Shown here piece after piece: positions 7,461 to 62,747 of a DNA stretch of 64,000 nt. Source of the DNA: an uncultured Pseudomonadota bacterium (GTDB lineage Bacteria > Babelota > Babeliae > Babelales > Vermiphilaceae); assembly GCA_964529835.1 (NCBI GenBank), contig CAZGZQ010000002.1:9341-73340 (forward strand), read 5' to 3'. Made by a program: the position numbers and the translations under genes. The notes beneath the pieces are model-generated. The model ran no database searches. It was not told where the DNA came from and saw only the letters and a program-made list of their open reading frames with translations. Each line of letters opens with the position of its first letter. Within the stretch, counting starts at the first letter, position 1.

Positions 7461-9470
7461 ATGAATCATTTAAAAAAATTGTTATTAATAACCTTTGTAA
7501 TATTTGCACGGGTTGAAAGCAGTGATGCTGGGACACAAAAGAGATTAAAGCCAAAAATTCAAAGAACGAACAAAAAAATAGTAAAAGAAGTTGGACAAAT
7601 TTTTACAACAGATGATCAAAGCCAAATAGCAAAAGAAGTAAACGATGTGCAACTTCTTGCACAAACCCATGAACAAAAGAAAGAAGTTGCACAAGCCTTA
7701 CAAAAAGAAATAATAAAACAAACCAAAGAAATCAAAAATGATTTGGAAAAAGATAACAAGAGTATACCTAAATATATAGAATATATGGATGCTCTTGATA
7801 TCATCAAATCAAAAAAAGAGCTTTCAGAAATAAAAAACTCAAGCTGGACAAACAGTTATATTATCAAACCATTAACCAAAACATATCGACTCTTTTTGCG
7901 CGTCTGGGATCAAAAAAAATATACAGCACTTCTTGAACAAGAACGCAAATCGCTTGAACATGCACTTAACGTTCAAGCACACAACAACATTATGCTGTTG
8001 TATGTTGCACTTGACCTTGCAATAAAAGATGCTGCATTAAACACTGAACATATGTTTAAAAAAGAGAATTTTTATAAAACAATGATACACGCCTTTGAAG
8101 GCGGTGCACTTTTTGCCTCAGATATTCAATTGTCAAACAAAGTTAAAGATTTAATCACAGAATTGAATATGTTGATAACTCAAAACTTTGAAAAAATCAG
8201 CACTAATAAAGCTATTGTTCAATCAATATGGCAGATGAACGAGATTTTTGAACAATTAGATTCACAAAAAAAACCTATTCAGACAAAACTTCGTATTGAA
8301 AAAGATTTTAAATATGAATCTCTGTTAATCAAAGAATTGTGTGTTAATGCAGCAAACAAAAACGGACAAATATTGGTTGATAGCAAAGAATCATACGCAC
8401 AATATCTTCAAAAATGGATCTCAGAACCAAAAAATGTTGCCAAAGTTGGTTTTGTAATGGCTGCAATCGGCGGGCTTTATATCTATGGACCTGCAGTGCC
8501 TGCATGGCTCAAAGAGTATTCAACCAGCTCAATTGGATCAATAAAAAGTGCGCTTTCAAAAGGATATAACGCAACAATATCTTCAGTCAAAAATTTGTGG
8601 AATAAACTTGCCAATAAAAAAGCCCAAGAAATGCCTGATTTCAAAGAAAACAAAGAAAAATCAAAGCGAATTACAAACTTAGAAAATGAAATTGATCAGG
8701 GTTTTGCATTCAAAGATGAGCGATCAGCCCAAAACATTGAAAATTCAGGATACGAATCATCATGGCAATATTATGCTGATAATTTAGAGGCAGAACGAGA
8801 AACAAAAGCCAGAGAAGAGCAATTTAAAAAAGATAACGAAGAAAGAAGAGAAAAAATATTAGAAAATGATGCTATAGCAACCCTTTTTGATATACAAAAG
8901 ATTCAAACTGAAGATGCTTTTCAAGAAAATGAGAAAGCACGTGGCTTGCAACAACAAGGACAAATGCTTAATGATTTTGATGATGAAATAAAAAGTGATG
9001 AGCTGGCACAAGCCCTTGCGCAAAGAAACTGGGATGCAGACAGAAAAAAAGCATTACAGGCAGAAGCAATAGAAAAAGCACAGCAAACTCTTACTGATCC
9101 AATAGAAAGAGAAACATTTGATGAAGTTGAAGCTATGGCACAATTTAAAATTGATAACACATTAAATCAATCAGCTGAAAATAAACGAATGGAAAGATTT
9201 AAAGCTGAACAAGCAAGAGCCTTGGAAGATATAAATTATATAAAGGAAAGAATAGCAAAAAGCTCTCAAGATAACTCAAAAATCTCTCAAGAAAACAAAC
9301 AATATTGGACAGAGCTTCTTGAGCAATCAAAAAAAGAGTGGACCGAAGAATTAAGCAATCTTGAAAAACAATTAGAGGGTGCTCGTGAACGTGAACGAAT
9401 TTTAAATAAAGAATCTTTTAAAGACCTGCAACAACAAGGACAAATGCTTAATAATTCTGATTTGGAATAA
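7461..9470 (+). CDS. Large secreted coiled-coil protein (K/E/Q-rich), unknown function
   Basis: The signal peptide is MNHLKKLLLITFVIFARVESSDA. A long heptad-like charged sequence follows. There is one central hydrophobic segment, VGFVMAAIGGLYIYGPAVPAWL. The motif LQQQGQMLN occurs twice. Confidence 0.6.
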   Translation: MNHLKKLLLITFVIFARVESSDAGTQKRLKPKIQRTNKKIVKEVGQIFTTDDQSQIAKEVNDVQLLAQTHEQKKEVAQALQKEIIKQTKEIKNDLEKDNKSIPKYIEYMDALDIIKSKKELSEIKNSSWTNSYIIKPLTKTYRLFLRVWDQKKYTALLEQERKSLEHALNVQAHNNIMLLYVALDLAIKDAALNTEHMFKKENFYKTMIHAFEGGALFASDIQLSNKVKDLITELNMLITQNFEKISTNKAIVQSIWQMNEIFEQLDSQKKPIQTKLRIEKDFKYESLLIKELCVNAANKNGQILVDSKESYAQYLQKWISEPKNVAKVGFVMAAIGGLYIYGPAVPAWLKEYSTSSIGSIKSALSKGYNATISSVKNLWNKLANKKAQEMPDFKENKEKSKRITNLENEIDQGFAFKDERSAQNIENSGYESSWQYYADNLEAERETKAREEQFKKDNEERREKILENDAIATLFDIQKIQTEDAFQENEKARGLQQQGQMLNDFDDEIKSDELAQALAQRNWDADRKKALQAEAIEKAQQTLTDPIERETFDEVEAMAQFKIDNTLNQSAENKRMERFKAEQARALEDINYIKERIAKSSQDNSKISQENKQYWTELLEQSKKEWTEELSNLEKQLEGARERERILNKESFKDLQQQGQMLNNSDLE

Positions 9471-49855: not shown

Positions 49856-52306
49856 ATGAAGCAAACAATACTGATTATCACAGTTTTCATAGCAGCAACA
49901 ATTTTTCAAAAAACAGTTACTGCTTCGTCTGTATCACCGCAACAATCAACACAAAGAACTATTAGTAAAGTTACCATTATCGGTAATAAACTAATTTCAA
50001 CAGAAGCTCTTTTAATTCATGTTCCGTACAAATCAGGTGAAGTTTTTGAACAAAAAGAATGTATCAAAGAAATTCACAATTCATTTAAACAAATTGCAAA
50101 AGTTATAATAAAGGGCTCACTTGAAGGAATAAATAAAATTGGTATTACAATTGAAATAACTGAAAAAAATCCTATTAAAGAAATTATAATTAAAGGCAAT
50201 CGACACATACCTTTAAAGGAAATTTTGAAAGCAATCAAAGCAGAAGAGATAACCGCTCTTGATGAACAAGAACTTGCAATGCTTGGCAAAACAATTAAAA
50301 AATTGTATACGGATAAAGGGTATGCAAAAACAGAAATTGCAACCGCTATTGAAACTGTCAATAACCAAAATAATGCTGTTTTTACTATCAGTGAAGGTAA
50401 ACGATCCACAATTCGAAAAATAAATTTTTCTGGAAACAAATCAATTTCAGATAAAAATCTTCGCCAAGCAATCATTTCTAAGGAAGACTGGGTTCTTGGA
50501 TTCATGGATAAATCAAGTACATATCATCCTGAAAGAATTATGTATGGTGATACTCAAATGATCGAGGATCTTTACATAAATCAAGGTTTTTTATATGCAA
50601 AAGTTACGGATGTTACAACATTTATTGATCCAAAAACCTTTGCTATCGACCTTACATTCCACATACAAGAAGGACTGCAATATTCAATTGGCAGTATAAC
50701 CATGCAAGATTCACCTGAAATTTCAAGTGAAAAATTACTCTCAATAATACCTTTAAAAACAGGTATGCGATACAGTCGAAATGCAATATCTCAGTCAATA
50801 AAAACAATCGAAAGAGCATGGGCACAACAAGGGTATCTTTTCAGTTCAGCTCAACCATCAATTATCCCAAACGAAAATAATCAAACAGTTACTGTTGGGT
50901 TTAGTTACAGCAAAGGAGAAAAAGTTTTTGTTAATCGAATTGACATTGTAGGGAACAAAAAAACACGCGATAAAATTATTCGTCGAAAAATAATAGTTGA
51001 AGAGGGAGATGCAATAACACAAACCGCCCTTGATTTTTCAAAAAATTCAGTTGCAACGCTTGGTTTTTTTGATCAAAAAGATGGTGTAAACTGGAAGATC
51101 AAACGAATAAATGAAAAATCAGCAAACCTTGAACTACAATTAAAAGAGCGCAAAACAGGAAACTTAAGCTGTTCTCTTGGCTACGGAGGATCAGGAACAG
51201 ACATACGCTCATCAGGAACCGGTCTGAATGCAAAAATTGATTACTCAGATATCAATTTTTTGGGAAATGGAATTCAATCAAATCTTTCAGCTTCATGGGC
51301 TCGCGATGAACAAACATTAGTATTTCGCGCTGCACAACCATGGATGTTTGACAAACCAATTTTAGGAGCGATTGATCTCTATCATAAACGCCCAACGTAT
51401 GATGAATTGAGAAACTTAAGCACAAATGTTGTCAAAGAAAAACTCACTGGGGGAGCGCTTACATCGGGATTTATAATACAATCAAACAAATATAGAACTT
51501 TTCAAGATACAAATGTTCTTTTTTCTCTTGGTATGGATCATCTTGCATATCAAGAACATCCACGAGCGGCAATCTCTTTTGATGATAAAAATCAAGTAGC
51601 GCTTTTAAACCAACAATTCCAATCAATTCTTGATCAAGCATTTCACCCAGGAGAATTTTTGTGGTTTTCTCATAATCTTGAACAAGATCAGCGCAACCAT
51701 CCAATGCATCCAAGTCAAGGTCATCGATGGAAGTTTACCACAAAAGTTGCTCTTCCTGTATTGGGAAGCGATATTGGATTTTTTAAATTTTCTCTCGATA
51801 CTCACTGGTACACAACGCTTATTGATGAGTTAGGACTTGTATTTCATGTTCATGCATTATGCGGAATTACAAAACCATTTGCCAAGCGGATTATTCCATT
51901 TGGAGAGCTCTTTCACATCGGCGGACCAGCAACAGTCCGTGGATTTCAATTTGGACAAATAGGACCACGCTTTTTAAAAACCAGCACAATAGGGGCAGAA
52001 AAGACAGTAGTATTTAATCTTGAACTTATCTTTCCTATTACCAATGATTACTCTATCAAGGGAGTTCTTTTTTATGATGGTGGGGCAGGTTGGGGTAATC
52101 CCTATATTGATGACGTTAATAAAGATTTTGTTAATGGGCTTCATTTTGATTATCGTCACTCTGTTGGTATTGGAATCAGACTTCTTTCCCCTATTCCACT
52201 TAAAATTGATTGGGGCTTTAAAATCGACCCTAAAAAAGACAGACTTGATAGTCGAAAAAATGAACTTTCAAGCGAAGTTCATTTTGGAATGTCTTATGAC
52301 TTATAA
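49856..52306 (+). CDS. bamA: Outer membrane protein assembly factor BamA (Omp85 family)
   Basis: It has a signal peptide, repeated POTRA-like units (I.I.GN...S...L) and NRIDIVGNKKTRDKIIRR. The C-terminal ~350 aa form a beta-barrel region. Confidence 0.9.
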   Translation: MKQTILIITVFIAATIFQKTVTASSVSPQQSTQRTISKVTIIGNKLISTEALLIHVPYKSGEVFEQKECIKEIHNSFKQIAKVIIKGSLEGINKIGITIEITEKNPIKEIIIKGNRHIPLKEILKAIKAEEITALDEQELAMLGKTIKKLYTDKGYAKTEIATAIETVNNQNNAVFTISEGKRSTIRKINFSGNKSISDKNLRQAIISKEDWVLGFMDKSSTYHPERIMYGDTQMIEDLYINQGFLYAKVTDVTTFIDPKTFAIDLTFHIQEGLQYSIGSITMQDSPEISSEKLLSIIPLKTGMRYSRNAISQSIKTIERAWAQQGYLFSSAQPSIIPNENNQTVTVGFSYSKGEKVFVNRIDIVGNKKTRDKIIRRKIIVEEGDAITQTALDFSKNSVATLGFFDQKDGVNWKIKRINEKSANLELQLKERKTGNLSCSLGYGGSGTDIRSSGTGLNAKIDYSDINFLGNGIQSNLSASWARDEQTLVFRAAQPWMFDKPILGAIDLYHKRPTYDELRNLSTNVVKEKLTGGALTSGFIIQSNKYRTFQDTNVLFSLGMDHLAYQEHPRAAISFDDKNQVALLNQQFQSILDQAFHPGEFLWFSHNLEQDQRNHPMHPSQGHRWKFTTKVALPVLGSDIGFFKFSLDTHWYTTLIDELGLVFHVHALCGITKPFAKRIIPFGELFHIGGPATVRGFQFGQIGPRFLKTSTIGAEKTVVFNLELIFPITNDYSIKGVLFYDGGAGWGNPYIDDVNKDFVNGLHFDYRHSVGIGIRLLSPIPLKIDWGFKIDPKKDRLDSRKNELSSEVHFGMSYDL

Positions 52307-52659: not shown

Positions 52660-54257
52660 TTATTGGGCAACAAAAAATTCGTTCATTTATCTTGTGTACT
52701 CTTTTGTGCGCAATACATATCTTGCTCGTTTTTCGATTATATTATATACAAATAATACACCATAACTTTTATCTTGATATTTCTCAAAAACAAACGTCTC
52801 TTTTTGTATCACAATATGCACCACGCGGAGAAATATTTGATCGAAATGGCATTTTACTTGCAACAAATACTGACTGTATTTCTGCCTTTATCATTCCAAA
52901 ACAACTTACACAAAAAGATTTAACTGAATTACAAAACAATGGATTTTTAGAAAAAGAGGTCTCTCATAAAAAAAGTAATTTTTTATATATTGCACGACAC
53001 ATCAGTCAAGAACAAAAACAGATATTTGAACAACATTCAACAATTCATTTTTTATATGAAAAAGGGAGACATTATCCACATAAATCATGCCTTTCATGTA
53101 TCGGAGTTACCAACATAGACAATCAAGGAATTGCAGGAATTGAATATTTTTTCAATCAACAATTGCAAGGCAATCCAACAGATTATATTATGCAAAAAGA
53201 TGCACGCAAAGACTCTTTTTATACCAAAAAAGAAATTGTCCAACAAGGACATTTGCCAGAACCAATAACAGTCACGCTTGATAGCACATTACAATTCCTT
53301 GTCGAAGAAATATTACAAAAAAAAATGTCTGAATGGGATTGTCAACAAGGAGCTGCAATTATTGCAGATCCAAAAACAGGAGAAATATTAGCGCTTGTTT
53401 CGCACAATACAAATATACACGAAAAAAATAATATTCATAACTACGGAGTTACTCATGCATATGAATTTGGTTCTGTAAATAAAGTTTTTCTTGCACTTGC
53501 AGCGCTTGATGAAAAAATTGTAGATCGCAATACTCTTATTGATTGCAGAAATACAAAAACAACAATCCTTGATGGCAGGCCAGTTAACACGTGGAAAGCA
53601 GACGGCGCAATTCCCTTTTCTTCTGTGATAGCTCAATCAAATAATATTGGAGTTGCAATCGTTGCAAAAGAATTAAATGAAAAATTATATCATCATTATA
53701 TAAAATTAGGATTTGGCAAAAAACCTTCAATCGAACTTCCTGCCGCAGCAAAAGGATTTGTAAATCATCCAAGCAATTGGTCAAAGCAATCGATTATTTC
53801 ATTGTCATATGGATATGAAATTGCAGCATCACTTTTGCAATTAACACAAGCATTTTGCATTATTGCACACGATGGGATAGCAGTACCTCTTTCTCTTATC
53901 AAAAATACTCATGAAAAAAAGAAAAAACAAAAATATAAAGGCGATACAATTGAAAATATCAAAGCAATTTTAGAAGAAACAACTCAGCAAGGAACTGCCC
54001 ATCGAGCACGTATGAAAGGATATCGCGTAATGACAAAAACAGGAAGCGCTCATCTGCTTGTCAATGGTCAGTATAGCCCCGACTCAAACATTTACTCATG
54101 TGCAGGAATTATTGAAAAAGATTCATATCAAAGGGTCATTACGTTATATGTAACAAAAGAAGGCGCTGGTCAAAAAAAATTATGGGCATCTATTATTGCA
54201 GTCCCAATTTTTCAAGCTATTGCTGAAAAAATGTTAGTACACGAACGAATTATTTAA
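52656..54257 (+). CDS. ftsI: Class B penicillin-binding protein / peptidoglycan D,D-transpeptidase (FtsI/PBP2-like)
   Basis: It has an N-terminal TM anchor plus SVNK (SxxK), SNN (SxN) and KTGSA (KTG). Confidence 0.85.
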   Translation: MIIGQQKIRSFILCTLLCAIHILLVFRLYYIQIIHHNFYLDISQKQTSLFVSQYAPRGEIFDRNGILLATNTDCISAFIIPKQLTQKDLTELQNNGFLEKEVSHKKSNFLYIARHISQEQKQIFEQHSTIHFLYEKGRHYPHKSCLSCIGVTNIDNQGIAGIEYFFNQQLQGNPTDYIMQKDARKDSFYTKKEIVQQGHLPEPITVTLDSTLQFLVEEILQKKMSEWDCQQGAAIIADPKTGEILALVSHNTNIHEKNNIHNYGVTHAYEFGSVNKVFLALAALDEKIVDRNTLIDCRNTKTTILDGRPVNTWKADGAIPFSSVIAQSNNIGVAIVAKELNEKLYHHYIKLGFGKKPSIELPAAAKGFVNHPSNWSKQSIISLSYGYEIAASLLQLTQAFCIIAHDGIAVPLSLIKNTHEKKKKQKYKGDTIENIKAILEETTQQGTAHRARMKGYRVMTKTGSAHLLVNGQYSPDSNIYSCAGIIEKDSYQRVITLYVTKEGAGQKKLWASIIAVPIFQAIAEKMLVHERII

Positions 54258-55570
54258 TTTCTATTATTAAAAGTATCTTTATAGGGTTTACAGCCAAAGT
54301 ATAGCGTGCACAACCTATCCAAAAAAGCATATTTTGTAAATAATCCAAATTGATTTTCCATCAACCATTCCATTCGTTCTTTAGAATGAAGGTATTCACA
54401 AAAAAAATTAAAAAATACAGTACCTATAATAATAATTCCAGACAAAAGACGGAATGGAAATATACAATTTTCTTTTAATACTAAAGGAATAAGATCATAT
54501 GCTATTCTTGTTGCACATGCAAAATGCAAAAAAGAAGAATCACGAGCTTGTAAAAATAGCAAACCGTTTATAACCAAACAAACAACTAAATGAAACGTTC
54601 TCAGCCCAAAATCAGATGATCTGATTGTACAACAAATATCAAAAATTGACCAAAAAAGACCAATCAAAAACATTGATTGACTTAAGCAATTGATCATACT
54701 AATGTTATGGCTTATATCCTGACACCTTTGAAATGATGATTCATCAAGCTTACAATTTATAAAATAATTATTTCTTGATTGATCTTCATTAAAATATTTT
54801 TTAAAAATAATTTTTCTTATAACTTTATTTTTTTGCTCATCAGTTTTCCCCAAAGAAAGATTGAAACAATTTTTCAAAGTAATAGTTTTAAAAGTTTTTT
54901 GTAACTTAAAAAGTGTTTCATTAATTGAAGAATTTAAAATAGTAACTCTCTTCAAATTTAAATTTTGATTTTGATTCAAATTTTTGAATTGATTAAAAAA
55001 TTGAGTCAAACTATCTGAAGCAAGACCATTTAACTCTAAATAATGCGCATTTGCGTGCATCAAACAAGTAAAAAATGTTTGACTATCATGCGCTATTAAT
55101 TCATTCCATTCAGGTTTTGATTTAATAATTTGTTCTTTGCAAATACTCTCAAAATAGTCAGGCAAACGTTCAGGCATATTTGTTTTTAAATATTCAAAAC
55201 AGTCACCTGAAACATTAAAATAATTATCGCTGTTTTTTATATATTCTTCAACTTTGCGTTTTTTGTCATAATCAGGCAACACACAAGTCATAATTGAAAA
55301 ATTTAATAGTCCTTTTTTAATGGCTGCTTTCAAAAGAGGATCAAGAAAAATCTCTTGATCAAATCCTAATGCTTTTCTATCGACCGCAAGATTTACAAGA
55401 AGCTGTGTTGTTGCACCTGAATAATTAAAATGAGGATTAAATAATTTCTTAAGATATTGTCTGTTTTTGCTTTTTTTTTGAAGGAAAAGGAAATTTTTTA
55501 AAAATTTCTTTTTGAAAACCGTGTGCATCATATGTAAAGTCTTTAATCGCATTGCATAGAGAAAGATCAA
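54254..55570 (-). CDS. Hypothetical protein with C-terminal multi-TM region; true N-terminus probably supplied by ORF 55449-55655 across an A9 tract
   Basis: It is a long ORF with C-terminal helices MFLIGLFWSIFDICC, FHLVVCLVINGLLFL and LLSGIIIIGTVFFNFF. The first ~30 codons look non-native. Confidence 0.55.
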   Translation of the reverse strand: MIFLYAMRLKTLHMMHTVFKKKFLKNFLFLQKKSKNRQYLKKLFNPHFNYSGATTQLLVNLAVDRKALGFDQEIFLDPLLKAAIKKGLLNFSIMTCVLPDYDKKRKVEEYIKNSDNYFNVSGDCFEYLKTNMPERLPDYFESICKEQIIKSKPEWNELIAHDSQTFFTCLMHANAHYLELNGLASDSLTQFFNQFKNLNQNQNLNLKRVTILNSSINETLFKLQKTFKTITLKNCFNLSLGKTDEQKNKVIRKIIFKKYFNEDQSRNNYFINCKLDESSFQRCQDISHNISMINCLSQSMFLIGLFWSIFDICCTIRSSDFGLRTFHLVVCLVINGLLFLQARDSSFLHFACATRIAYDLIPLVLKENCIFPFRLLSGIIIIGTVFFNFFCEYLHSKERMEWLMENQFGLFTKYAFLDRLCTLYFGCKPYKDTFNNRN

Positions 55571-55655
55571 TATCTAAACCTTTCCATTTGACATAAAACT
55601 CATCAGAAGAAAATAAAAAAGAAAAAGCAAACAAAAAAAGATATATAAAAATCAT
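55449..55655 (-). CDS. 68-aa ORF encoding a signal peptide; likely the 5' part of the 54254-55570 gene, displaced by a 1-nt frame change
   Basis: It starts MIFIYLFLFAFSFLFSS. Both frames read through the A9 run (plus-strand T9 at 55471-55479). Confidence 0.45.
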   Translation of the reverse strand: MIFIYLFLFAFSFLFSSDEFYVKWKGLDIDLSLCNAIKDFTYDAHGFQKEIFKKFPFPSKKKQKQTIS

Positions 55656-55800
55656 AAAGCAAACTTTTAAAAAAACAGTTTAATTATAATCATTTAAATA
55701 CATTTTTGATATACATATGATGTGTAATAAAGATAACTGTGATTATCTTGTCTTTTTCAAAAAAAATTTAATAGAGTTATTTAAAAAAGGACCTAGTCAA

Positions 55801-57174
55801 ATGATGGGCATAAATCAGCGCTTTACCCTTTTGTTCATTTTGTTAACACAAACCATCATTACATACGAAATCAAACGATCACATACATTTATGAAATCTC
55901 ATCAAGCAGATCGCCATATTTTTTTGCATCAAATCAATAAAGGCATTGCGCAAGGATCATCTCTTTCTGTAACAGGTTTTTATTTTGAAGGACTTAAGCA
56001 TGAAAAAACAGCAAAGCCTTTTTTAATTAATCATAAAGAAAAATTATTAATTCAAGGCGATGCCGTTCCCAATAATTTTAATCGTGATGTGCGGGCTGAA
56101 TGGCTCGATTTGCCATCAGATTTTAATTCAGAATTTGGCATGCGACCAACCGCACAACAAAGAGGCTTTATCGTTGAAGCAGAACAAAGCTTATTCAAAC
56201 TTACTGGATTTAATATTTTTAAAAAAAGTCGAGTCTGCCTAAGAGTTCCGGTTATGCATGTCAGACATTCTCTCAACATGCAAGGCAATCAAGAACTTAT
56301 AAAAGCGCTTAATAATCCCGAATGGAAAAATCTTTTGTTTGCTCCCACACAAAAAAAATGGGGTATTGGAGATATCACACTCTACACAAAAACCTGCTTT
56401 TCACGAGATTATGTAACACTCAATTATTATAGTGGATTTATAATTCCAACAGGAGCAAAGTATAACAACGAGAATTTTTTTCCGATTCAATTTGGCAACA
56501 ACAGAAGACTTGGGTTGAATGGCGGCATTGATCTTCAAATACATTTGAATAAACAACCCTCTACCTTCAAATCAATTTTTTTTCTCAATCTTGATGCATG
56601 TTATCTTTTAAGAACATTTAGAACACGAACATTTAATCTCAAAGAAAAACCGTGGAGCTGTTTTATGTGCTTTAATTCTGCACAAGATCCACAAAAAATA
56701 AATATCCCCGGTGTTAATGTATTAAGTTATGAGGCTCATATCAAACCAAATAGCATGGCAGATTTTGCAATAGGATATAGCGTTGGAAATGAGCAAATTT
56801 CCTGCTCATTTGGATATAACGTGTGGGGATATGAAGGTGAACATATTGAAGACATAAAAAATTGCTCGTCAGAAAATTTTGGGATTGCATCAGGTATTTC
56901 AAGCAATACTCCAACAAGCGCAAGCCAAAGTACAATATCAAAGCAAAGTCAACCAGACGAAACATTTAATCCCATCAAAAAACTTGATATAGACTTAAAA
57001 TCAGGAGCGCATCCTTCTGTTCTAAATCATGCAATTTTCTTCACAGCAACAGGCAATATTAAAACAAATTCATTTGAAACAATGATAAAAATTGGCATTG
57101 TAGGAGAATTTCCTCAAAAAAATGGAATTTGTCCATTATGGGGAATGTGGACAAGCATTATTATATCGGTCTGA
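55801..57174 (+). CDS. Hypothetical secreted protein, possibly an outer-membrane beta-barrel
   Basis: MMGINQRFTLLFILLTQTII resembles a signal peptide (the track start is 55717). It has no later TM helix and shows alternating aromatic/Gly-rich stretches. No terminal Phe is present. The call is weak. Confidence 0.35.
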   Translation: MMGINQRFTLLFILLTQTIITYEIKRSHTFMKSHQADRHIFLHQINKGIAQGSSLSVTGFYFEGLKHEKTAKPFLINHKEKLLIQGDAVPNNFNRDVRAEWLDLPSDFNSEFGMRPTAQQRGFIVEAEQSLFKLTGFNIFKKSRVCLRVPVMHVRHSLNMQGNQELIKALNNPEWKNLLFAPTQKKWGIGDITLYTKTCFSRDYVTLNYYSGFIIPTGAKYNNENFFPIQFGNNRRLGLNGGIDLQIHLNKQPSTFKSIFFLNLDACYLLRTFRTRTFNLKEKPWSCFMCFNSAQDPQKINIPGVNVLSYEAHIKPNSMADFAIGYSVGNEQISCSFGYNVWGYEGEHIEDIKNCSSENFGIASGISSNTPTSASQSTISKQSQPDETFNPIKKLDIDLKSGAHPSVLNHAIFFTATGNIKTNSFETMIKIGIVGEFPQKNGICPLWGMWTSIIISV

Positions 57175-57256
57175 TAATAACACTCAAAAAAATATTTATT
57201 GACATACAAAAAAAGGCTTTAATAGATTTTCAAAAAGAGTAGCAAGGATAGAAAAT

Positions 57257-58300
57257 ATGATATCGAGTTTTTCTACAAACAAAAATCAAAAAAATCCACT
57301 CGTTTCTCCCTTGTTTCAAATCATTCTCATCACTCTTTCATCACTTATTTTCAGTATTAACTTATACAATCAAATCAATACATGGAAACAAAAAGATCCT
57401 ATTCCTGTCATTGAAACGGTAAATCCAATTACATATAAAAATTTTGGCGGATTTGCATACCAAGTCAAAGTAGGTCTTTATATCGAAGACTTTAATATTT
57501 TTGACACAGTTAAAAACGATTTTCTTCTTTCAGGTATTGTCTGGTTTATGTTTCCAATTGGGGCATTTGCCCTTGATACATTAGGCCAATTTTCTTTTGC
57601 AAGAGCAGATATTCTTGAACGGTCACGTCCCATAACATTATTGTTTGAAAATTATATGGTTGCACAATACAAAATTAAAATACGATTTAAATCCCCTTTA
57701 TTGCTTCACGACTTTCCTTTAGATAATCACAGAATTGTTATTGAATTAAATCACACAGTTATATCACCTACAGAAGTTTTATTTGAATCGGGACTTCAAT
57801 TTTTTCAAATAAAACCATCAAATATTTCAGGATGGGAGATTGTTGATAGACAAATTACACAGGGATACACAAAAGTTATCTTATCAGAAGAAAATCCAAC
57901 CAAGGAATTTTATTATCCCACTGTACTTTTTCTTGTTGATACAATGCGATCAGGAACTCAATATCCACTCACACTTTTTCTTCCCCTTCTTATGATTTTT
58001 TTCATTATCTTATTTGCTTTTAGTATCGAAAGAGAAGAAACACGAATAACTCTTACTGCAAGTGGTGTTACAGGTATTTTGGCATATCGATTTGTAATTG
58101 CAAATTTATCTCCACAAGTTGGATATTTCATGATTTCTGATTATTGCTTTTTCCTTTTTTTAGGCCTCTCAATTATGATTTTTTTAGTAAATATTGTTGA
58201 TATATTTTATGCAAATTTTTCTCGTTTTATAAAAAACAGTTTTGTAATACTCTTTCATTTTATTACAAATGCAACGATAATGTATTTATTCTATAGGTAA
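57257..58300 (+). CDS. Prokaryotic pentameric ligand-gated ion channel (GLIC/ELIC-type, Cys-loop superfamily) homologue
   Basis: It is collinear with GLIC blocks. VKVGLYIEDFNIFDTVKNDF..WFMF matches beta1-2. DFPLDNHRIVIEL matches the FPFD loop. ISGWEIVD is also shared. The pre-M1/M1 is YPLTLFLPLLMIFFIILFAFSI and the M2 is EETRITLTASGVTGILAYRF. M3, a short loop and M4 follow. Confidence 0.7.
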   Translation: MISSFSTNKNQKNPLVSPLFQIILITLSSLIFSINLYNQINTWKQKDPIPVIETVNPITYKNFGGFAYQVKVGLYIEDFNIFDTVKNDFLLSGIVWFMFPIGAFALDTLGQFSFARADILERSRPITLLFENYMVAQYKIKIRFKSPLLLHDFPLDNHRIVIELNHTVISPTEVLFESGLQFFQIKPSNISGWEIVDRQITQGYTKVILSEENPTKEFYYPTVLFLVDTMRSGTQYPLTLFLPLLMIFFIILFAFSIEREETRITLTASGVTGILAYRFVIANLSPQVGYFMISDYCFFLFLGLSIMIFLVNIVDIFYANFSRFIKNSFVILFHFITNATIMYLFYR

Positions 58301-58303
58301 AAA

Positions 58304-60526
58304 ATGTATATTTTGATATTTTCTTTTATTTTTTTTCAAAACACAAAAGGAATGACATTTGATCAATGGAATGCATATAGTAAAACTATTCCTGAATTTC
58401 CACAACTAAGCGACCCAGAAAAACCAAATTGGCTTGATCCTGATTATGATAATTTTTTGGAAACAATACGACCATCATTTATTTCCAGGTTATTGCAAAA
58501 AAGGGGAATACAATTTCAAAAAACATGGACTCCTCTTTTTTTTAAAAACATTTTAAACAAGGTAACTGAAAATCGTCTTATTAAAAAATATGATTACAAT
58601 ACCGTTGCATTGTTAAGCATAAAAGAACCGGTCAACATATTTATTTGGGGAGACACTCATGCAGCATTTCATGCACTACTAAGGGGACTTTCGTGGCTAA
58701 AAGAAAGAAATATTATTGACGAAAAAGGCAAAATATTAGATAAAAATACTTACTTTGTATTTCACGGAGACCAAATCAGCCGTGGTCCATATTCAATGGA
58801 AACATTAAGCTTAATAATGCAAATGCTTGATGAAAACCCAGAACATGCCCTTTATATTAAAGGAAATCATGAATCTAACGGATATTGGCATAATTTTGGA
58901 CTTAAACGAGAATTGCGTATTCGAGGGTTACATCTTGATAGCAATTTTATACCATTAAGCCCAACAATAAAAAAATTTTTCAAAACATTACCAAACATAT
59001 TTTGCATTAATACACAAAAAGAACCAAATCGTTATATTGTTTTCAATTTCAATGGACTTGAAGAACCTTACATTAAAAAATTTAGCCTGTCTGATCAAAC
59101 AGAAATAAGATTTGAACATCATGATTCAATCGATACAAAAACTCTAGAAGAAGGATCATTTGTAGAAGCTGTTATCAAAACAGAAGAATGGACTAAGCAA
59201 CATCGTGCTAAAAATGGACTAGGGCTCCTTGATCAAACCTTTGGCGCAACAACCTGGGCCGTCCTTTCTTCGCCTATTGAAATCCATAAAAAATATTATG
59301 GCTTAAATAATGATGCATTTTGCAAAATTAAAATTGATCCAAACGAGATTCAAAAAAGTACCATCGAGCTTTACACACACCCATTAACAGATTCATCGTT
59401 ACAATTTAACATCACCGAAAGTTATAATTTAATTACAGCACGACCTCTTTCACATCCTCAACCAGAACCCCAAGGGCCAGACATTGTTATTGGTTCAAGT
59501 CTTTCTTTGCTTCAGGGAGTTACGATTATGGGAACACACGTCAAATCAGGTATTAGTATTGCGATTAATGAACAAAATCAGGCTGGAGGAATTAATGGAA
59601 GACATATTCGTTTTTTTCCTTTAAACGATGATTATACTCCTTATAAAACAAGAAAAAATATCGATTTTTATTTAAAAAATAATATTACTGATATTTTAAT
59701 TTGTTCAACAGGAAGTCCAACTCTTGAAGGATCTATCGATTATATTAAGGACAAAAAAATTGCTCTTATTGGACCGGTAACAGGCGATCCACTTTTTGCA
59801 AATCCTTATTTAAAGGGATTAATTAATCTAACAGGGTCATATGATATTGAAGTGCAAGCACATCTGGAAATACTTATTAAAGAACATGCAGCAAAAAATT
59901 TTGCTTTTTTTTATCAAATAGAAGGATTAAGTGCTGTGATGAAAAATGTACGGGCTATATTACAAAAGAATGGAATTACACAATGGCTTGAAATTCCCTA
60001 TTCTCGTGGAAGTGTTAATTTTCAAAAAGAGTCTCAAAAACTTAAATCAACTCAAATTGATGCCATCGGAATTTTGGCTGTTTCGCAAGCAGGACAGGCA
60101 TTTATTAGAGAGGTTACATTAGAATATTTAAGTACTAAAAAAATATTTGGTCACTCGTTTGTTGGTGACGAATCATTTCATGAATTTATTAAACATAAGG
60201 GACTTTCCATTCAACTTTCAACTCGCGTGCCAAACGCGTATACAAGCGATCTTGCAATCGTTCAGCAATACAGAGAAGTAATGGAAAAAAATGGTGCATC
60301 ATGCAGTGCAGATTCCCTTGAAGGATATATAACCACACGATTTTTAATAGATATCATGAAAGAGTGCCTTCCCAATATAAATAAAGATACAATTTTGAAC
60401 AAAATAGAATCCCTTAAAAATTTTAAATGGAATGGGTTAACATTCAATTTTGATGAAAAAACAAGAAGACTTTCAAATATTATTTGGATTGAAAAAACTG
60501 ATGGGAAACTGATACAAATCAACTAA
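58304..60526 (+). CDS. Secreted fusion: degenerate PPP-type metallophosphoesterase domain + type-I periplasmic binding protein (LivJ/Peripla_BP_6-like) domain
   Basis: It has the signal MYILIFSFIFFQ. The PPP-like blocks are IWGDTHAAFH (GDxHG-like), FHGDQISRGP (GDxxDRG with Ser for Asp) and KGNHE. The C half has IVIGSSLSL..G..SGISIAINEQNQAGGINGRHIRFFPLNDDYTP, a LivJ-like signature. Confidence 0.7.
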   Translation: MYILIFSFIFFQNTKGMTFDQWNAYSKTIPEFPQLSDPEKPNWLDPDYDNFLETIRPSFISRLLQKRGIQFQKTWTPLFFKNILNKVTENRLIKKYDYNTVALLSIKEPVNIFIWGDTHAAFHALLRGLSWLKERNIIDEKGKILDKNTYFVFHGDQISRGPYSMETLSLIMQMLDENPEHALYIKGNHESNGYWHNFGLKRELRIRGLHLDSNFIPLSPTIKKFFKTLPNIFCINTQKEPNRYIVFNFNGLEEPYIKKFSLSDQTEIRFEHHDSIDTKTLEEGSFVEAVIKTEEWTKQHRAKNGLGLLDQTFGATTWAVLSSPIEIHKKYYGLNNDAFCKIKIDPNEIQKSTIELYTHPLTDSSLQFNITESYNLITARPLSHPQPEPQGPDIVIGSSLSLLQGVTIMGTHVKSGISIAINEQNQAGGINGRHIRFFPLNDDYTPYKTRKNIDFYLKNNITDILICSTGSPTLEGSIDYIKDKKIALIGPVTGDPLFANPYLKGLINLTGSYDIEVQAHLEILIKEHAAKNFAFFYQIEGLSAVMKNVRAILQKNGITQWLEIPYSRGSVNFQKESQKLKSTQIDAIGILAVSQAGQAFIREVTLEYLSTKKIFGHSFVGDESFHEFIKHKGLSIQLSTRVPNAYTSDLAIVQQYREVMEKNGASCSADSLEGYITTRFLIDIMKECLPNINKDTILNKIESLKNFKWNGLTFNFDEKTRRLSNIIWIEKTDGKLIQIN

Positions 60527-60537
60527 AAAATATTATC

Positions 60538-60984
60538 TTATTCGTTCTTTTTTCTATTCTGATAAAAAAAATAAGGAACCTCAATAAAAAAGGATGGACT
60601 AAAAAATGCAGTCTTATAACACGTTGGCTTTAAATGACCTTGAAAAGAGTATTTCATTAGATATGGATACAAAAGTGTAAAGACAGATATTGTAACACAT
60701 CGTAAAAAAGATGGTGCCTGAGTCGGAAGTATTTCTCTGCCCATTCCTTGCTGATCTCGTCTGCAATATGTTGCAATTACATAAATCGCAACAACAAAAG
60801 ACGTCATCAAATTACACGATTGATCTAATGCTTTTCTACACCAAAAAAGATTATTTCCACAACACTCACGATATCCAAAGATATCGTGTTGCTCTTTTTT
60901 TTGATTAATTTTACTCTTACCCAAAGCAATATCATCAGCATTTAATGATACAAAATAAAAAAAAAGTAAAAAAAATTTTATCAT
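60538..60984 (-). CDS. Hypothetical Cys-rich secreted/membrane protein
   Basis: The signal peptide is MIKFFLLFFYFVSLNA. No motif was recognised. Confidence 0.45.
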   Translation of the reverse strand: MIKFFLLFFYFVSLNADDIALGKSKINQKKEQHDIFGYRECCGNNLFWCRKALDQSCNLMTSFVVAIYVIATYCRRDQQGMGREILPTQAPSFLRCVTISVFTLLYPYLMKYSFQGHLKPTCYKTAFFSPSFFIEVPYFFYQNRKKNE

Positions 60985-61025
60985 AATGTATTATTAATTT
61001 ATATTTTCTAATTAATATAGATAAA

Positions 61026-61079
61026 TTAACAATAATTGAAAGAACTTTAATAAATTAAAGTTCTTTCAATTATTGTTAA
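61026..61079 (-). terminator. 25-bp perfect inverted repeat immediately downstream of groEL; probable terminator hairpin
   Basis: ttaacaataattgaaagaactttaa (61026-61050) is the exact reverse complement of 61055-61079. It begins 19 nt after the groEL stop. Confidence 0.55.
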
Positions 61080-61097
61080 AAATTACAATACTAAATA

Positions 61098-62747
<1,650 letters not shown>

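Follow-up and report, generated by a model that had tools for sequence, protein, structure and literature searches.

A very divergent predicted pentameric ligand-gated ion channel and its linked periplasmic partner in Dependentiae-type bacteria

The 64,000-nt stretch of DNA analysed here (the window; positions 9,341 to 73,340 of contig CAZGZQ010000002.1, assembly GCA_964529835.1; G+C ~31%) carries two adjacent plus-strand genes that, judged from their sequences and those of their relatives, form one unit. The first (57257–58300) encodes a 347-residue subunit of a divergent pentameric ligand-gated ion channel (pLGIC), recognised by a family profile, an AlphaFold2 (AF2) model and Foldseek. The second (58304–60526) encodes a 740-residue partner with a probable export signal, a PPP-like phosphoesterase domain and a type I periplasmic binding protein (PBP-I) domain. 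The channel stop codon TAA (58298–58300) is followed, after a gap of 3 nt, by the partner ATG at 58304, with AGG 7 nt 5′ of this ATG, inside the end of the channel gene, and AAGGA 9–13 nt 5′ of the channel ATG. Since the next gene (60538–60984) runs on the other strand, the end of the pair is at 60526. An earlier sequence-only reading of the window had placed both open reading frames (ORFs), with this 3-nt gap, exactly here. A tblastn search of the window found no paralogue of either gene. Coordinates given below for parts of the two genes all refer to the plus strand.

The channel subunit

Curated domain models miss the channel. Pfam, including Neur_chan_LBD and Neur_chan_memb, gave no hit to the channel ORF at E ≤ 1, the NCBIfam model LGIC_1 reached E = 6.8e-4 (19.1 bits, against a cut-off of 500), and a precomputed Pfam domain is recorded for none of 65 database homologues. 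It is thus the family profile and the fold that make the case for a pLGIC; the misses reflect divergence, not missing homology. When the single channel sequence was searched against the PDB with phmmer, all 63 matches were pLGICs, the best being ELIC (3e-4), in a collinear alignment over residues 143–305. A profile built from 47 channel homologues, the alignment that underlies all family counts for the channel, matched GLIC at 5.1e-11 and 157 PDB sequences at E ≤ 0.01. The AF2 model made on the same alignment (predicted local distance difference test (pLDDT) 91.6, predicted template-modelling score (pTM) 0.82) has beta-sandwich strands within residues 68–231 and helices at 235–256, 260–284, 293–318 and 323–346. 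Foldseek of this model against the PDB returned more than 1100 matches at E ≤ 1e-3, and the 50 matches listed were all pLGICs (insect RDL GABA-A, ELIC, GLIC, sTeLIC and GluCl) at about 1e-17, with an identity to the structurally matched channels of only 14–17%. The profile match to GLIC and the Foldseek matches bear out the collinearity with GLIC and ELIC that had been proposed from the sequence alone, and by profile and predicted fold ORF 57257–58300 is a real but very divergent pLGIC.

The subunit shares with GLIC, ELIC and sTeLIC a periplasmic beta-sandwich followed by four membrane helices (M1–M4) with a very short M3–M4 loop. The sandwich covers residues ~57–231 (57425–57949), as placed by the AF2 strands and, from residue ~140 on, by the alignment to GLIC and ELIC, and the four-helix channel domain modelled by AF2 covers residues 235–346 (57959–58294). 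M2 comprises residues 260–284 (58034–58108), with a register set by aligning it without gaps to GLIC and ELIC, the M2–M3 proline serving as the anchor, and the M3–M4 loop measures 4 residues. Also common to these channels are a Pro-loop of the form F/Y-P-x-D, here F153-P154-L155-D156 (57713–57724), and prolines in M1 (P243) and in the M2–M3 loop (P286). Across the 47 sequences, F153, P154, P243, Y277, F279, V280, P286 and D295 are invariant. Because the coupling elements are among these residues, the family is predicted to have a working gating apparatus that is under selection. The Pro-loop, the M1 proline, the glutamates before M2 (E260 and E261) and the short M3–M4 loop had all been named in the sequence-only reading and are all present.

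An extra membrane helix, TM0 (residues 18–40; 57308–57376), precedes this core. AF2 models it as a helix with pLDDT 87–97, and it contains the motif V-S-P-x-F-Q. Position 20 is aromatic in 41 of the 47 homologues, Q21 is kept in 36 and position 28 is Ser or Thr in 44. This conservation goes beyond plain hydrophobicity and suggests that TM0 is an uncleaved fifth membrane helix, not a cleaved signal peptide. Some channel relatives are longer at this end: P0182, P0222, P0215 and P0244 (~550 aa) and P0211 and P0214 (~447 aa) have three to eight further N-terminal membrane helices, which precede TM0 and connect through it. These helices contain a repeated F-G-I-S-H ... R-x-x-A-Y motif, match no Pfam model and represent a second, unrelated mode of extending this channel.

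The predicted pore of the window channel is lined by T265 (2′), S269 (6′), T272 (9′), A276 (13′) and F279 (16′). Small or polar residues line the pore throughout the family (S/T at 2′, G/S at 6′, T at 9′, A/G at 13′), and 16′ is Phe in 47/47, a residue also found at 16′ in ELIC. pLGICs nearly always have Leu or Ile at 9′, and channels in which a polar residue replaces it open easily; here 9′ is Thr in 44 homologues, Ser in two and Pro in one, with no Leu/Ile gate residue. Acidic residues before M2 are the pattern of cation-selective pLGICs. The window channel has E258, E260 and E261 in this stretch, which is variable across the family, and that its pore is cation selective is a guess.

Neither predicted loop B (165–175) nor loop C (207–219) contains an invariant aromatic residue. 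The window channel has no aromatic in loop B or at the tip of loop C (209–217), and Phe or Tyr occupies three loop B/C positions in ~40–45% of homologues; conserved instead are S170-P171-x-E173 and D210/D213. A canonical small-molecule pocket thus appears not to be conserved in these loops. Relative to GLIC, ELIC and sTeLIC, then, the channel stands apart not only in its low identity and its invisibility to Pfam, but also in the extra N-terminal helix, the Thr in place of Leu/Ile at 9′, the loops B and C that lack an invariant aromatic and a near-obligate linkage to its partner gene.

The partner protein

The AF2 model of the partner has a pLDDT of 91.5 and a pTM of 0.90, the latter indicating that its two domains are rigidly held together. 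Residues 1 to ~17, MYILIFSFIFFQNTKG (58304–58354; pLDDT 56–69), are hydrophobic, and homologues have a typical signal peptide or anchor at this place. The segment is atypical in having no basic residue at its start, and we therefore grade it only as a probable export signal. It is followed by an N-terminal motif, PEFP...NWxDPDY (residues 25–60), and the PPP-like metallophosphoesterase domain (together 58376–59473), and then by a LivJ-type, two-lobed binding domain of PBP-I cluster B (residues 393–740; 59480–60523).

Pfam Metallophos matches residues 112–251 (1.6e-7, 32.4 bits, cut-off 21.5), and the best PDB sequence matches of this part are the eukaryote-type PPP phosphatases BSU1, PP5, PP2A and PP1. 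An hhalign comparison of the partner family with PP1-alpha, whose query sequence was checked against PDB 1fjm, gave 97.4% probability. The window partner contains GDTH (116–119), GDQISRG (155–161) and GNHE (187–190); with PPP phosphatases (PP1, PP2A, PP5 and the bacterial PrpE and ApaH) and pseudo-phosphatases it has in common the motifs GDxH, GDxxxRG and GNHE, as well as how the N-terminal half of the fold is ordered. PP1 D64, H66, D92, D95, R96, N124 and the catalytic H125 align with D117, H119, D156, S159, R160, N188 and H189, respectively, and PP1 H173 with F249, where the His is replaced. Of the PP1 metal ligands D64, H66, D92, N124, H173 and H248, the first five could be aligned and the H248 position could not.

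Among 78 partner homologues, not one has the full set of five alignable ligands; four are left in 25 of them and none in 13. The D64 equivalent is retained in 45, H66 in 36, D92 in 48, N124 in 20 and H173 in 25, and homologues with the H173 equivalent mostly carry Lys or Arg at the N124 position. The most conserved residues of the domain, H123 (70/78) and E190 (75/78), are neither metal ligands nor the catalytic His. Such a pattern is that of a domain retained for its shape, and the phosphoesterase domain is probably not catalytic. The label pseudo-phosphatase, used in the sequence-only reading, accordingly fits at the level of the family, whose domain differs from the PPP phosphatases in its predicted periplasmic location, its unconserved metal ligands and its fusion to a PBP domain.

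Alternatively, the domain could be an active phosphoesterase that dephosphorylates a host metabolite in the periplasm, the product being captured by the attached PBP domain or acting on the channel. In the window copy, with GDTH, GD...RG and GNHE, only one of the five alignable ligands is lost and the catalytic His is present, the 25 homologues with four ligands point the same way, and the covalent linkage of enzyme and binding domain could channel a product. Against this, the complete set occurs in none of the 78 homologues, its losses are scattered over all positions, H173 is mostly accompanied by Lys or Arg in place of N124, the invariant residues are other than the ligands and the catalytic His, and two channel–PBP fusions (P0197 and P0225, described below) dispense with the domain altogether. 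We consider an active enzyme quite unlikely.

The second domain is matched by Pfam Peripla_BP_6 over residues 408–725 (1.7e-24, 87.6 bits, cut-off 31.7), and its closest PDB sequences are LivJ-like binding proteins. The top 50 Foldseek matches of the partner model are all binding proteins, among them 4kv7, 3lop and 4n0q (target-normalised TM-scores 0.85–0.86), which are closed, ligand-bound cluster-B proteins. Both domains named in the sequence-only reading therefore exceed their Pfam cut-offs, and the export signal named there is probable; of the profile matches to which that reading looked, those of Neur_chan_LBD and Neur_chan_memb to the channel did not appear, and the link to pLGICs was made by the family's own profile.

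An hhalign comparison with LivJ (query sequence checked against 1z15) gave 97% probability over the first 199 LivJ residues. We take LivJ Y18, S79, T102, Y150, Y202 and E226 to be the residues that contact the alpha-amino and alpha-carboxylate groups of its ligand. S79 is kept, as S471. The segment A100-A101-T102 becomes V492-T493-G494, M409 takes the place of Y18, and Y150 gives way to L542 in the window partner, at a position that is Tyr in most of the family; a gap-free extension of the alignment would place Y202 at V593 and E226 at S618. With the LivJ contacts mostly replaced, the domain is unlikely to bind an alpha-amino acid in the manner of LivJ. The invariant or near-invariant residues of its own family include Q538, Y566 and R568. 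The partner thus shares Pfam family and fold with LivJ and LivK, and differs from these proteins and their LivHMGF transporter both in its ligand contacts and in its surroundings. No ATP-binding cassette (ABC) permease or ATPase genes of the LivHMGF type are conserved at 43 related loci or in the window flanks, a search that did not extend to whole genomes, and ABC-ATPase motifs at the loci are confined to three unrelated large ORFs.

Linkage, fusions and neighbouring genes

These 43 loci come from a scan of one genome per species and lie nearly all in metagenome assemblies of Dependentiae/Babeliales/TM6; four are cut by contig ends, leaving 39 that are informative. In 38 of the 39, a phosphoesterase-domain gene lies directly 3′ of the channel gene on the same strand, in most loci with a gap of ≤25 nt or an overlap, and the adjacency holds at protein identities as low as 28–39%. 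The pair first noticed in the window is thus conserved in related genomes. It comes in two split architectures. Type A, that of the window, has the channel gene followed by one to four tandem copies of a phosphoesterase–PBP fusion, and type B has a PBP gene, the channel gene and a phosphoesterase gene with an N-terminal signal anchor, its domains confirmed by Pfam. In a neighbour-joining tree of the channels, type B forms one monophyletic clade and type A another. At L018 (3359–7891) a 1510-aa ORF 5′ of the channel gene combines a degenerate phosphoesterase region with three consecutive Peripla_BP_6 domains.

The same modules also occur as single polypeptides. An exhaustive search of representative sequences gave 3066 hits at E ≤ 1e-3 and, at E ≤ 1e-30, 395 clusters (50% identity), a sizeable pLGIC clade that standard domain models miss. 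Proteins of 1070–1112 aa with the order channel–phosphoesterase–PBP are found in P0108, P0185, P0188, P0189 and P0237, and a 1091-aa ORF at L042 has the same order, so that the three-module fusion exists in at least six lineages, with the partner part attached after M4. As evidence, such natural covalent joining of channel and partner takes the place of the predicted interaction to which the sequence-only reading had looked. In P0188, residues 6–306 align with residues 15–311 of the window channel (32% identity, 7e-52) and residues 384–1103 with residues 25–739 of the window partner (30% identity, 1e-100). Because the alignment to the partner begins only at residue 25, the fusion replaces exactly its first ~24 residues. 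P0197 (767 aa) and P0225 (743 aa) are channel–PBP fusions that have no phosphoesterase domain, which implies that the PBP domain can couple to the channel in the absence of an adaptor. Whole cassettes have been duplicated together in L015, L020 and L026.

Further evidence comes from the backbone around the pair. The ORF upstream of the channel (55717–57174, plus strand) encodes 485 aa, or 457 aa from an internal ATG at 55801, the start given in the sequence-only reading. Its only Pfam hit is a weak one, to the outer-membrane family Phenol_MetA_deg (E = 0.12). At L044 a homologue of this ORF precedes a channel and two partners; at L045/L046 (two copies of assembly GCA_035444025.1) and L047 a homologue lies in a window-like backbone that has neither channel nor partner. 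The shared order is ftsI ... upstream ORF ... groEL-groES, followed in L045/L046 by rpe; L047 ends before rpe. The presence or absence of the cassette inside a conserved backbone indicates that channel and partner were gained or lost together, and the upstream ORF, which occurs in the same backbone at loci that have no cassette, is not tied to the pair. We therefore rejected it as a part of the system, a role that the sequence-only reading had thought possible.

Could the two genes be chance or merely transcriptional neighbours, their proteins working independently, for example with the binding protein serving a transporter encoded in another part of the genome? Genes are often closely spaced where a genome is small and compact, and in some sources the partner bears the annotation of a branched-chain amino-acid transport substrate-binding protein. 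The near-universal adjacency at such low identities, the varied splitting and fusing of the same three modules, the recurrent covalent fusion, and the gain, loss and duplication of the pair as a unit make this very improbable indeed.

The fusions also bear on topology. The C-terminus of pLGIC M4 faces the extracellular side, here the periplasmic one, and no membrane helix lies between M4 and the phosphoesterase domain in the fused proteins; this places the partner on the same side as the ligand-binding domain of the channel. Free partners have N-termini resembling signal peptides or signal anchors, and the split-type phosphoesterase proteins begin with a basic stretch followed by a membrane helix. 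BamA (Omp85 plus POTRA), encoded in the window at 49856–52306, implies an outer membrane and therefore a periplasm. Taken together, these observations support a shared periplasmic side for the channel domain and the partner, as the sequence-only reading had proposed for both gene products.

When all ORFs of the loci were clustered by family, no other family occurred in more than 12 loci, and two families adjoin the cassette. Proteins of 420–530 aa with a signal peptide, a C-terminal Y-x-F and no Pfam match are encoded directly 5′ of the channel, on the same strand, in 12 type-A loci (L002, L005, L006, L009, L010, L011, L012, L015, L017, L020, L026 and L037), often in two or more tandem copies (for example L002:4788–6290 and L009:6614–7933). 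An unrelated secreted family of 690–820 aa, ending in Y-[KRS]-F, is encoded directly 3′ of the phosphoesterase gene in eight type-B loci (L013:10511–12631, L021, L028, L029:11024–13321, L032, L033, L034 and L043), giving a row of four genes, for PBP, channel, phosphoesterase and outer-membrane protein in that order. The L029 member attains the Pfam Alginate_exp gathering score (25.2 bits), and both families look like outer-membrane barrels. The upstream ORF of the window occupies the equivalent position and showed no homology to either family by hmmsearch and hhalign.

These neighbours bring in the main rival to a sensory role, binding-protein-dependent uptake. An outer-membrane porin would admit a host solute, the PBP domain would capture it, and the pentamer would serve as an inner-membrane conduit, for instance for an organic cation, and not as a signalling channel: the passive equivalent, built on a channel, of an ABC importer, in a bacterium dependent on host energy. 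Dependentiae are described as reliant on imported metabolites (PMC4776705; PMC6561590), which would suit such a route, as would the outer-membrane-like genes directly 5′ of the channel in 12 loci or 3′ of the phosphoesterase in eight, the pore lined by small and polar residues from 2′ to 13′, and the lack of ABC permease and ATPase genes near the cassette. Against it, about half of the loci have no outer-membrane-like neighbour, and the ORF upstream of the window pair belongs to neither family and occurs also at loci that have no cassette. The strictly conserved coupling elements, moreover, argue for allosteric gating. We know of no pLGIC that acts as a solute importer, and we regard uptake as unlikely, if the most serious of the alternatives.

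Proposed function and genomic context

We favour a sensory reading, in which the partner is a periplasmic binding-protein/adaptor unit, composed of the PBP-I domain and a pseudo-phosphatase, that docks on the divergent pLGIC and controls it; we hold this to be the probable function of the pair, with some reserve. The reading draws together the near-obligate linkage, the fission and fusion of the modules, the shared topology, the conserved gating elements, the degenerate enzyme site and an aromatic pocket that appears not to be conserved. The channel would sit in the inner membrane, with an uncleaved TM0, a compact periplasmic beta-sandwich, M1–M4 and the strictly conserved Pro-loop and M2–M3 proline, and the partner would be exported to the periplasm as an accessory subunit. 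There its PBP-I domain would close around a small molecule, probably not an alpha-amino acid bound as in LivJ, and the rigidly attached PPP-like domain, free of catalytic constraint, would serve as the docking or adaptor module. The ligand-loaded partner would then dock on the periplasmic domain of the channel and open or modulate a cation-permeable pore, so that the presence of a host-derived metabolite would be converted into an ion flux or a change of membrane potential in an obligate intracellular bacterium. We infer from gene and protein sequences that the partner docks on the channel and gates it, that the channel assembles as a cation-selective pentamer and that the pair has the physiological role described. 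The core of the sequence-only reading, a ligand-sensing channel with a partner, is supported at this level.

Several findings weigh against a sensor of this kind. Channel paralogues of one small clade stand with no partner gene beside them (L010:7980–9008, L005:5462–6547 and L037:5421–6431; in L005 and L037 the paralogue lies ~1.5 kb 5′ of a complete channel–partner cassette), which suggests that the channel may also work alone. Thr at 9′ could mean an easily or constitutively open pore, not one that is tightly ligand-gated. Outer-membrane-like genes adjoin the cassette in ~20 of the 43 loci, which fits transport as well as sensing. Finally, the window partner retains four of the five alignable metal ligands together with the catalytic His (D117, H119, D156, N188 and H189), so that residual or weak enzyme activity is possible for this copy.

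A more specific form of the sensory reading is a pLGIC with a protein agonist. The ligand would be read wholly by a detachable PBP-I clamshell on a dead PPP scaffold, docked on, or tethered after M4 to, a five-helix subunit that has neither an aromatic pocket nor a hydrophobic 9′ gate. This is possible, but we think it doubtful. Were it true, gating by an auxiliary subunit and a sensor attached at the C-terminus would both be firsts for a pLGIC, and the system would be a bacterial counterpart of the amino-terminal domains found in glutamate receptors.

The resemblance to such receptors extends to the fold. Ionotropic glutamate receptors in their amino-terminal domain, and class C G-protein-coupled receptors in their Venus-flytrap domain, have the same LIVBP-like PBP-I fold as the partner; Pfam ANF_receptor hits occur on partner homologues, and the partner model matches the GABA-B receptor in Foldseek (2.4e-14). 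In each case an extracellular clamshell is, or here would be, coupled to a membrane signalling protein. The channel superfamily differs from that of the ionotropic glutamate receptors and the module is detachable, so the analogy is one of logic, not of common descent of the whole assembly.

Closer precedents exist among prokaryotic pLGICs, some of which are fused N-terminally to PBP-I, Cache or MCP-N domains, and others of which are encoded in operons with stand-alone PBP-II or Cache genes, for which functional cooperation was proposed (Tasneem et al. 2004, PMC549065). DeCLIC has an N-terminal domain (PMC9897478, PMC12664993), and among such channels it alone has an accessory domain of solved structure (PMC9897478). 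Common to these channels and the present system is a pLGIC combined with a periplasmic small-molecule-binding module, fused or in the same operon. In the described systems (PMC549065, DeCLIC) the module is N-terminal, whereas here it follows M4 or is encoded by a separate downstream gene. It also consists of a PBP-I domain and a PPP-like pseudo-phosphatase, a combination not reported with pLGICs in the literature searched, and, unlike the cases of Tasneem et al., it comes in interchangeable one-, two- and three-gene forms confined to Dependentiae-type genomes. The sequence-only reading had called the system undescribed. That holds for the clade, the phosphatase-like module and the C-terminal attachment, of which the searched literature contained no description, and two comparative genomics papers on the phylum (PMC4776705, PMC6561590) make no mention of the system; it does not hold for the general idea, since the PBP-I fusions and the PBP-II and Cache operons were known (PMC549065). 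What appears new is thus a clade missed by standard models, a module resembling a phosphatase, the location of the added part behind M4 or in a gene downstream, the one- to three-gene forms, TM0 and the 9′ Thr, the concept itself having been anticipated in 2004.

The bacteria that carry the system belong to a little-studied phylum whose members are obligate parasites of protists. Because the sensing module comes as one separate protein, as two proteins or tethered to the channel, nature here provides material with which to ask how accessory domains control pLGIC gating, a question open for DeCLIC-type channels, and the family adds structural variants in its fifth membrane helix, its polar 9′ position and its candidate pseudo-phosphatase adaptor. 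Should a host metabolite be the ligand, these bacteria may use the system to sense the interior of the host cell, or to draw on it.

Turning to the DNA around the pair, promoter and terminator scans gave counts at chance level and one plausible site. This lies in the 82-nt gap 5′ of the channel gene (57199–57228, plus strand) and consists of TTGACA, an 18-nt spacer and TAGATT, matching at 10 of 12 positions; 30 such promoter-like sites were found in the region where 29.8 were expected by chance, and its assignment as the promoter of the channel gene is weak. An Rfam search of 55000–61300 gave nothing credible as a riboswitch or other RNA element that could reveal the ligand. A defence system was considered as an identity for the locus and rejected, PADLOC having given zero hits for the channel, the partner and the upstream ORF.

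Two minus-strand ORFs flank the region, 54254–55570 (438 aa) and 60538–60984 (148 aa); neither matches Pfam or NCBIfam, and the C-terminal half of the 438-aa protein is hydrophobic. Between the latter ORF and the end of groEL, at 61029–61076, lies an AT-rich, terminator-like perfect inverted repeat of 20 bp. GC skew is negative in 31 of the 32 2-kb windows of positions 1–64000, and the cumulative curve falls almost steadily to −3.95, which places the window within one replication arm. Two stretches, 22–26 kb and 36–40 kb, have a higher G+C (0.34–0.38).

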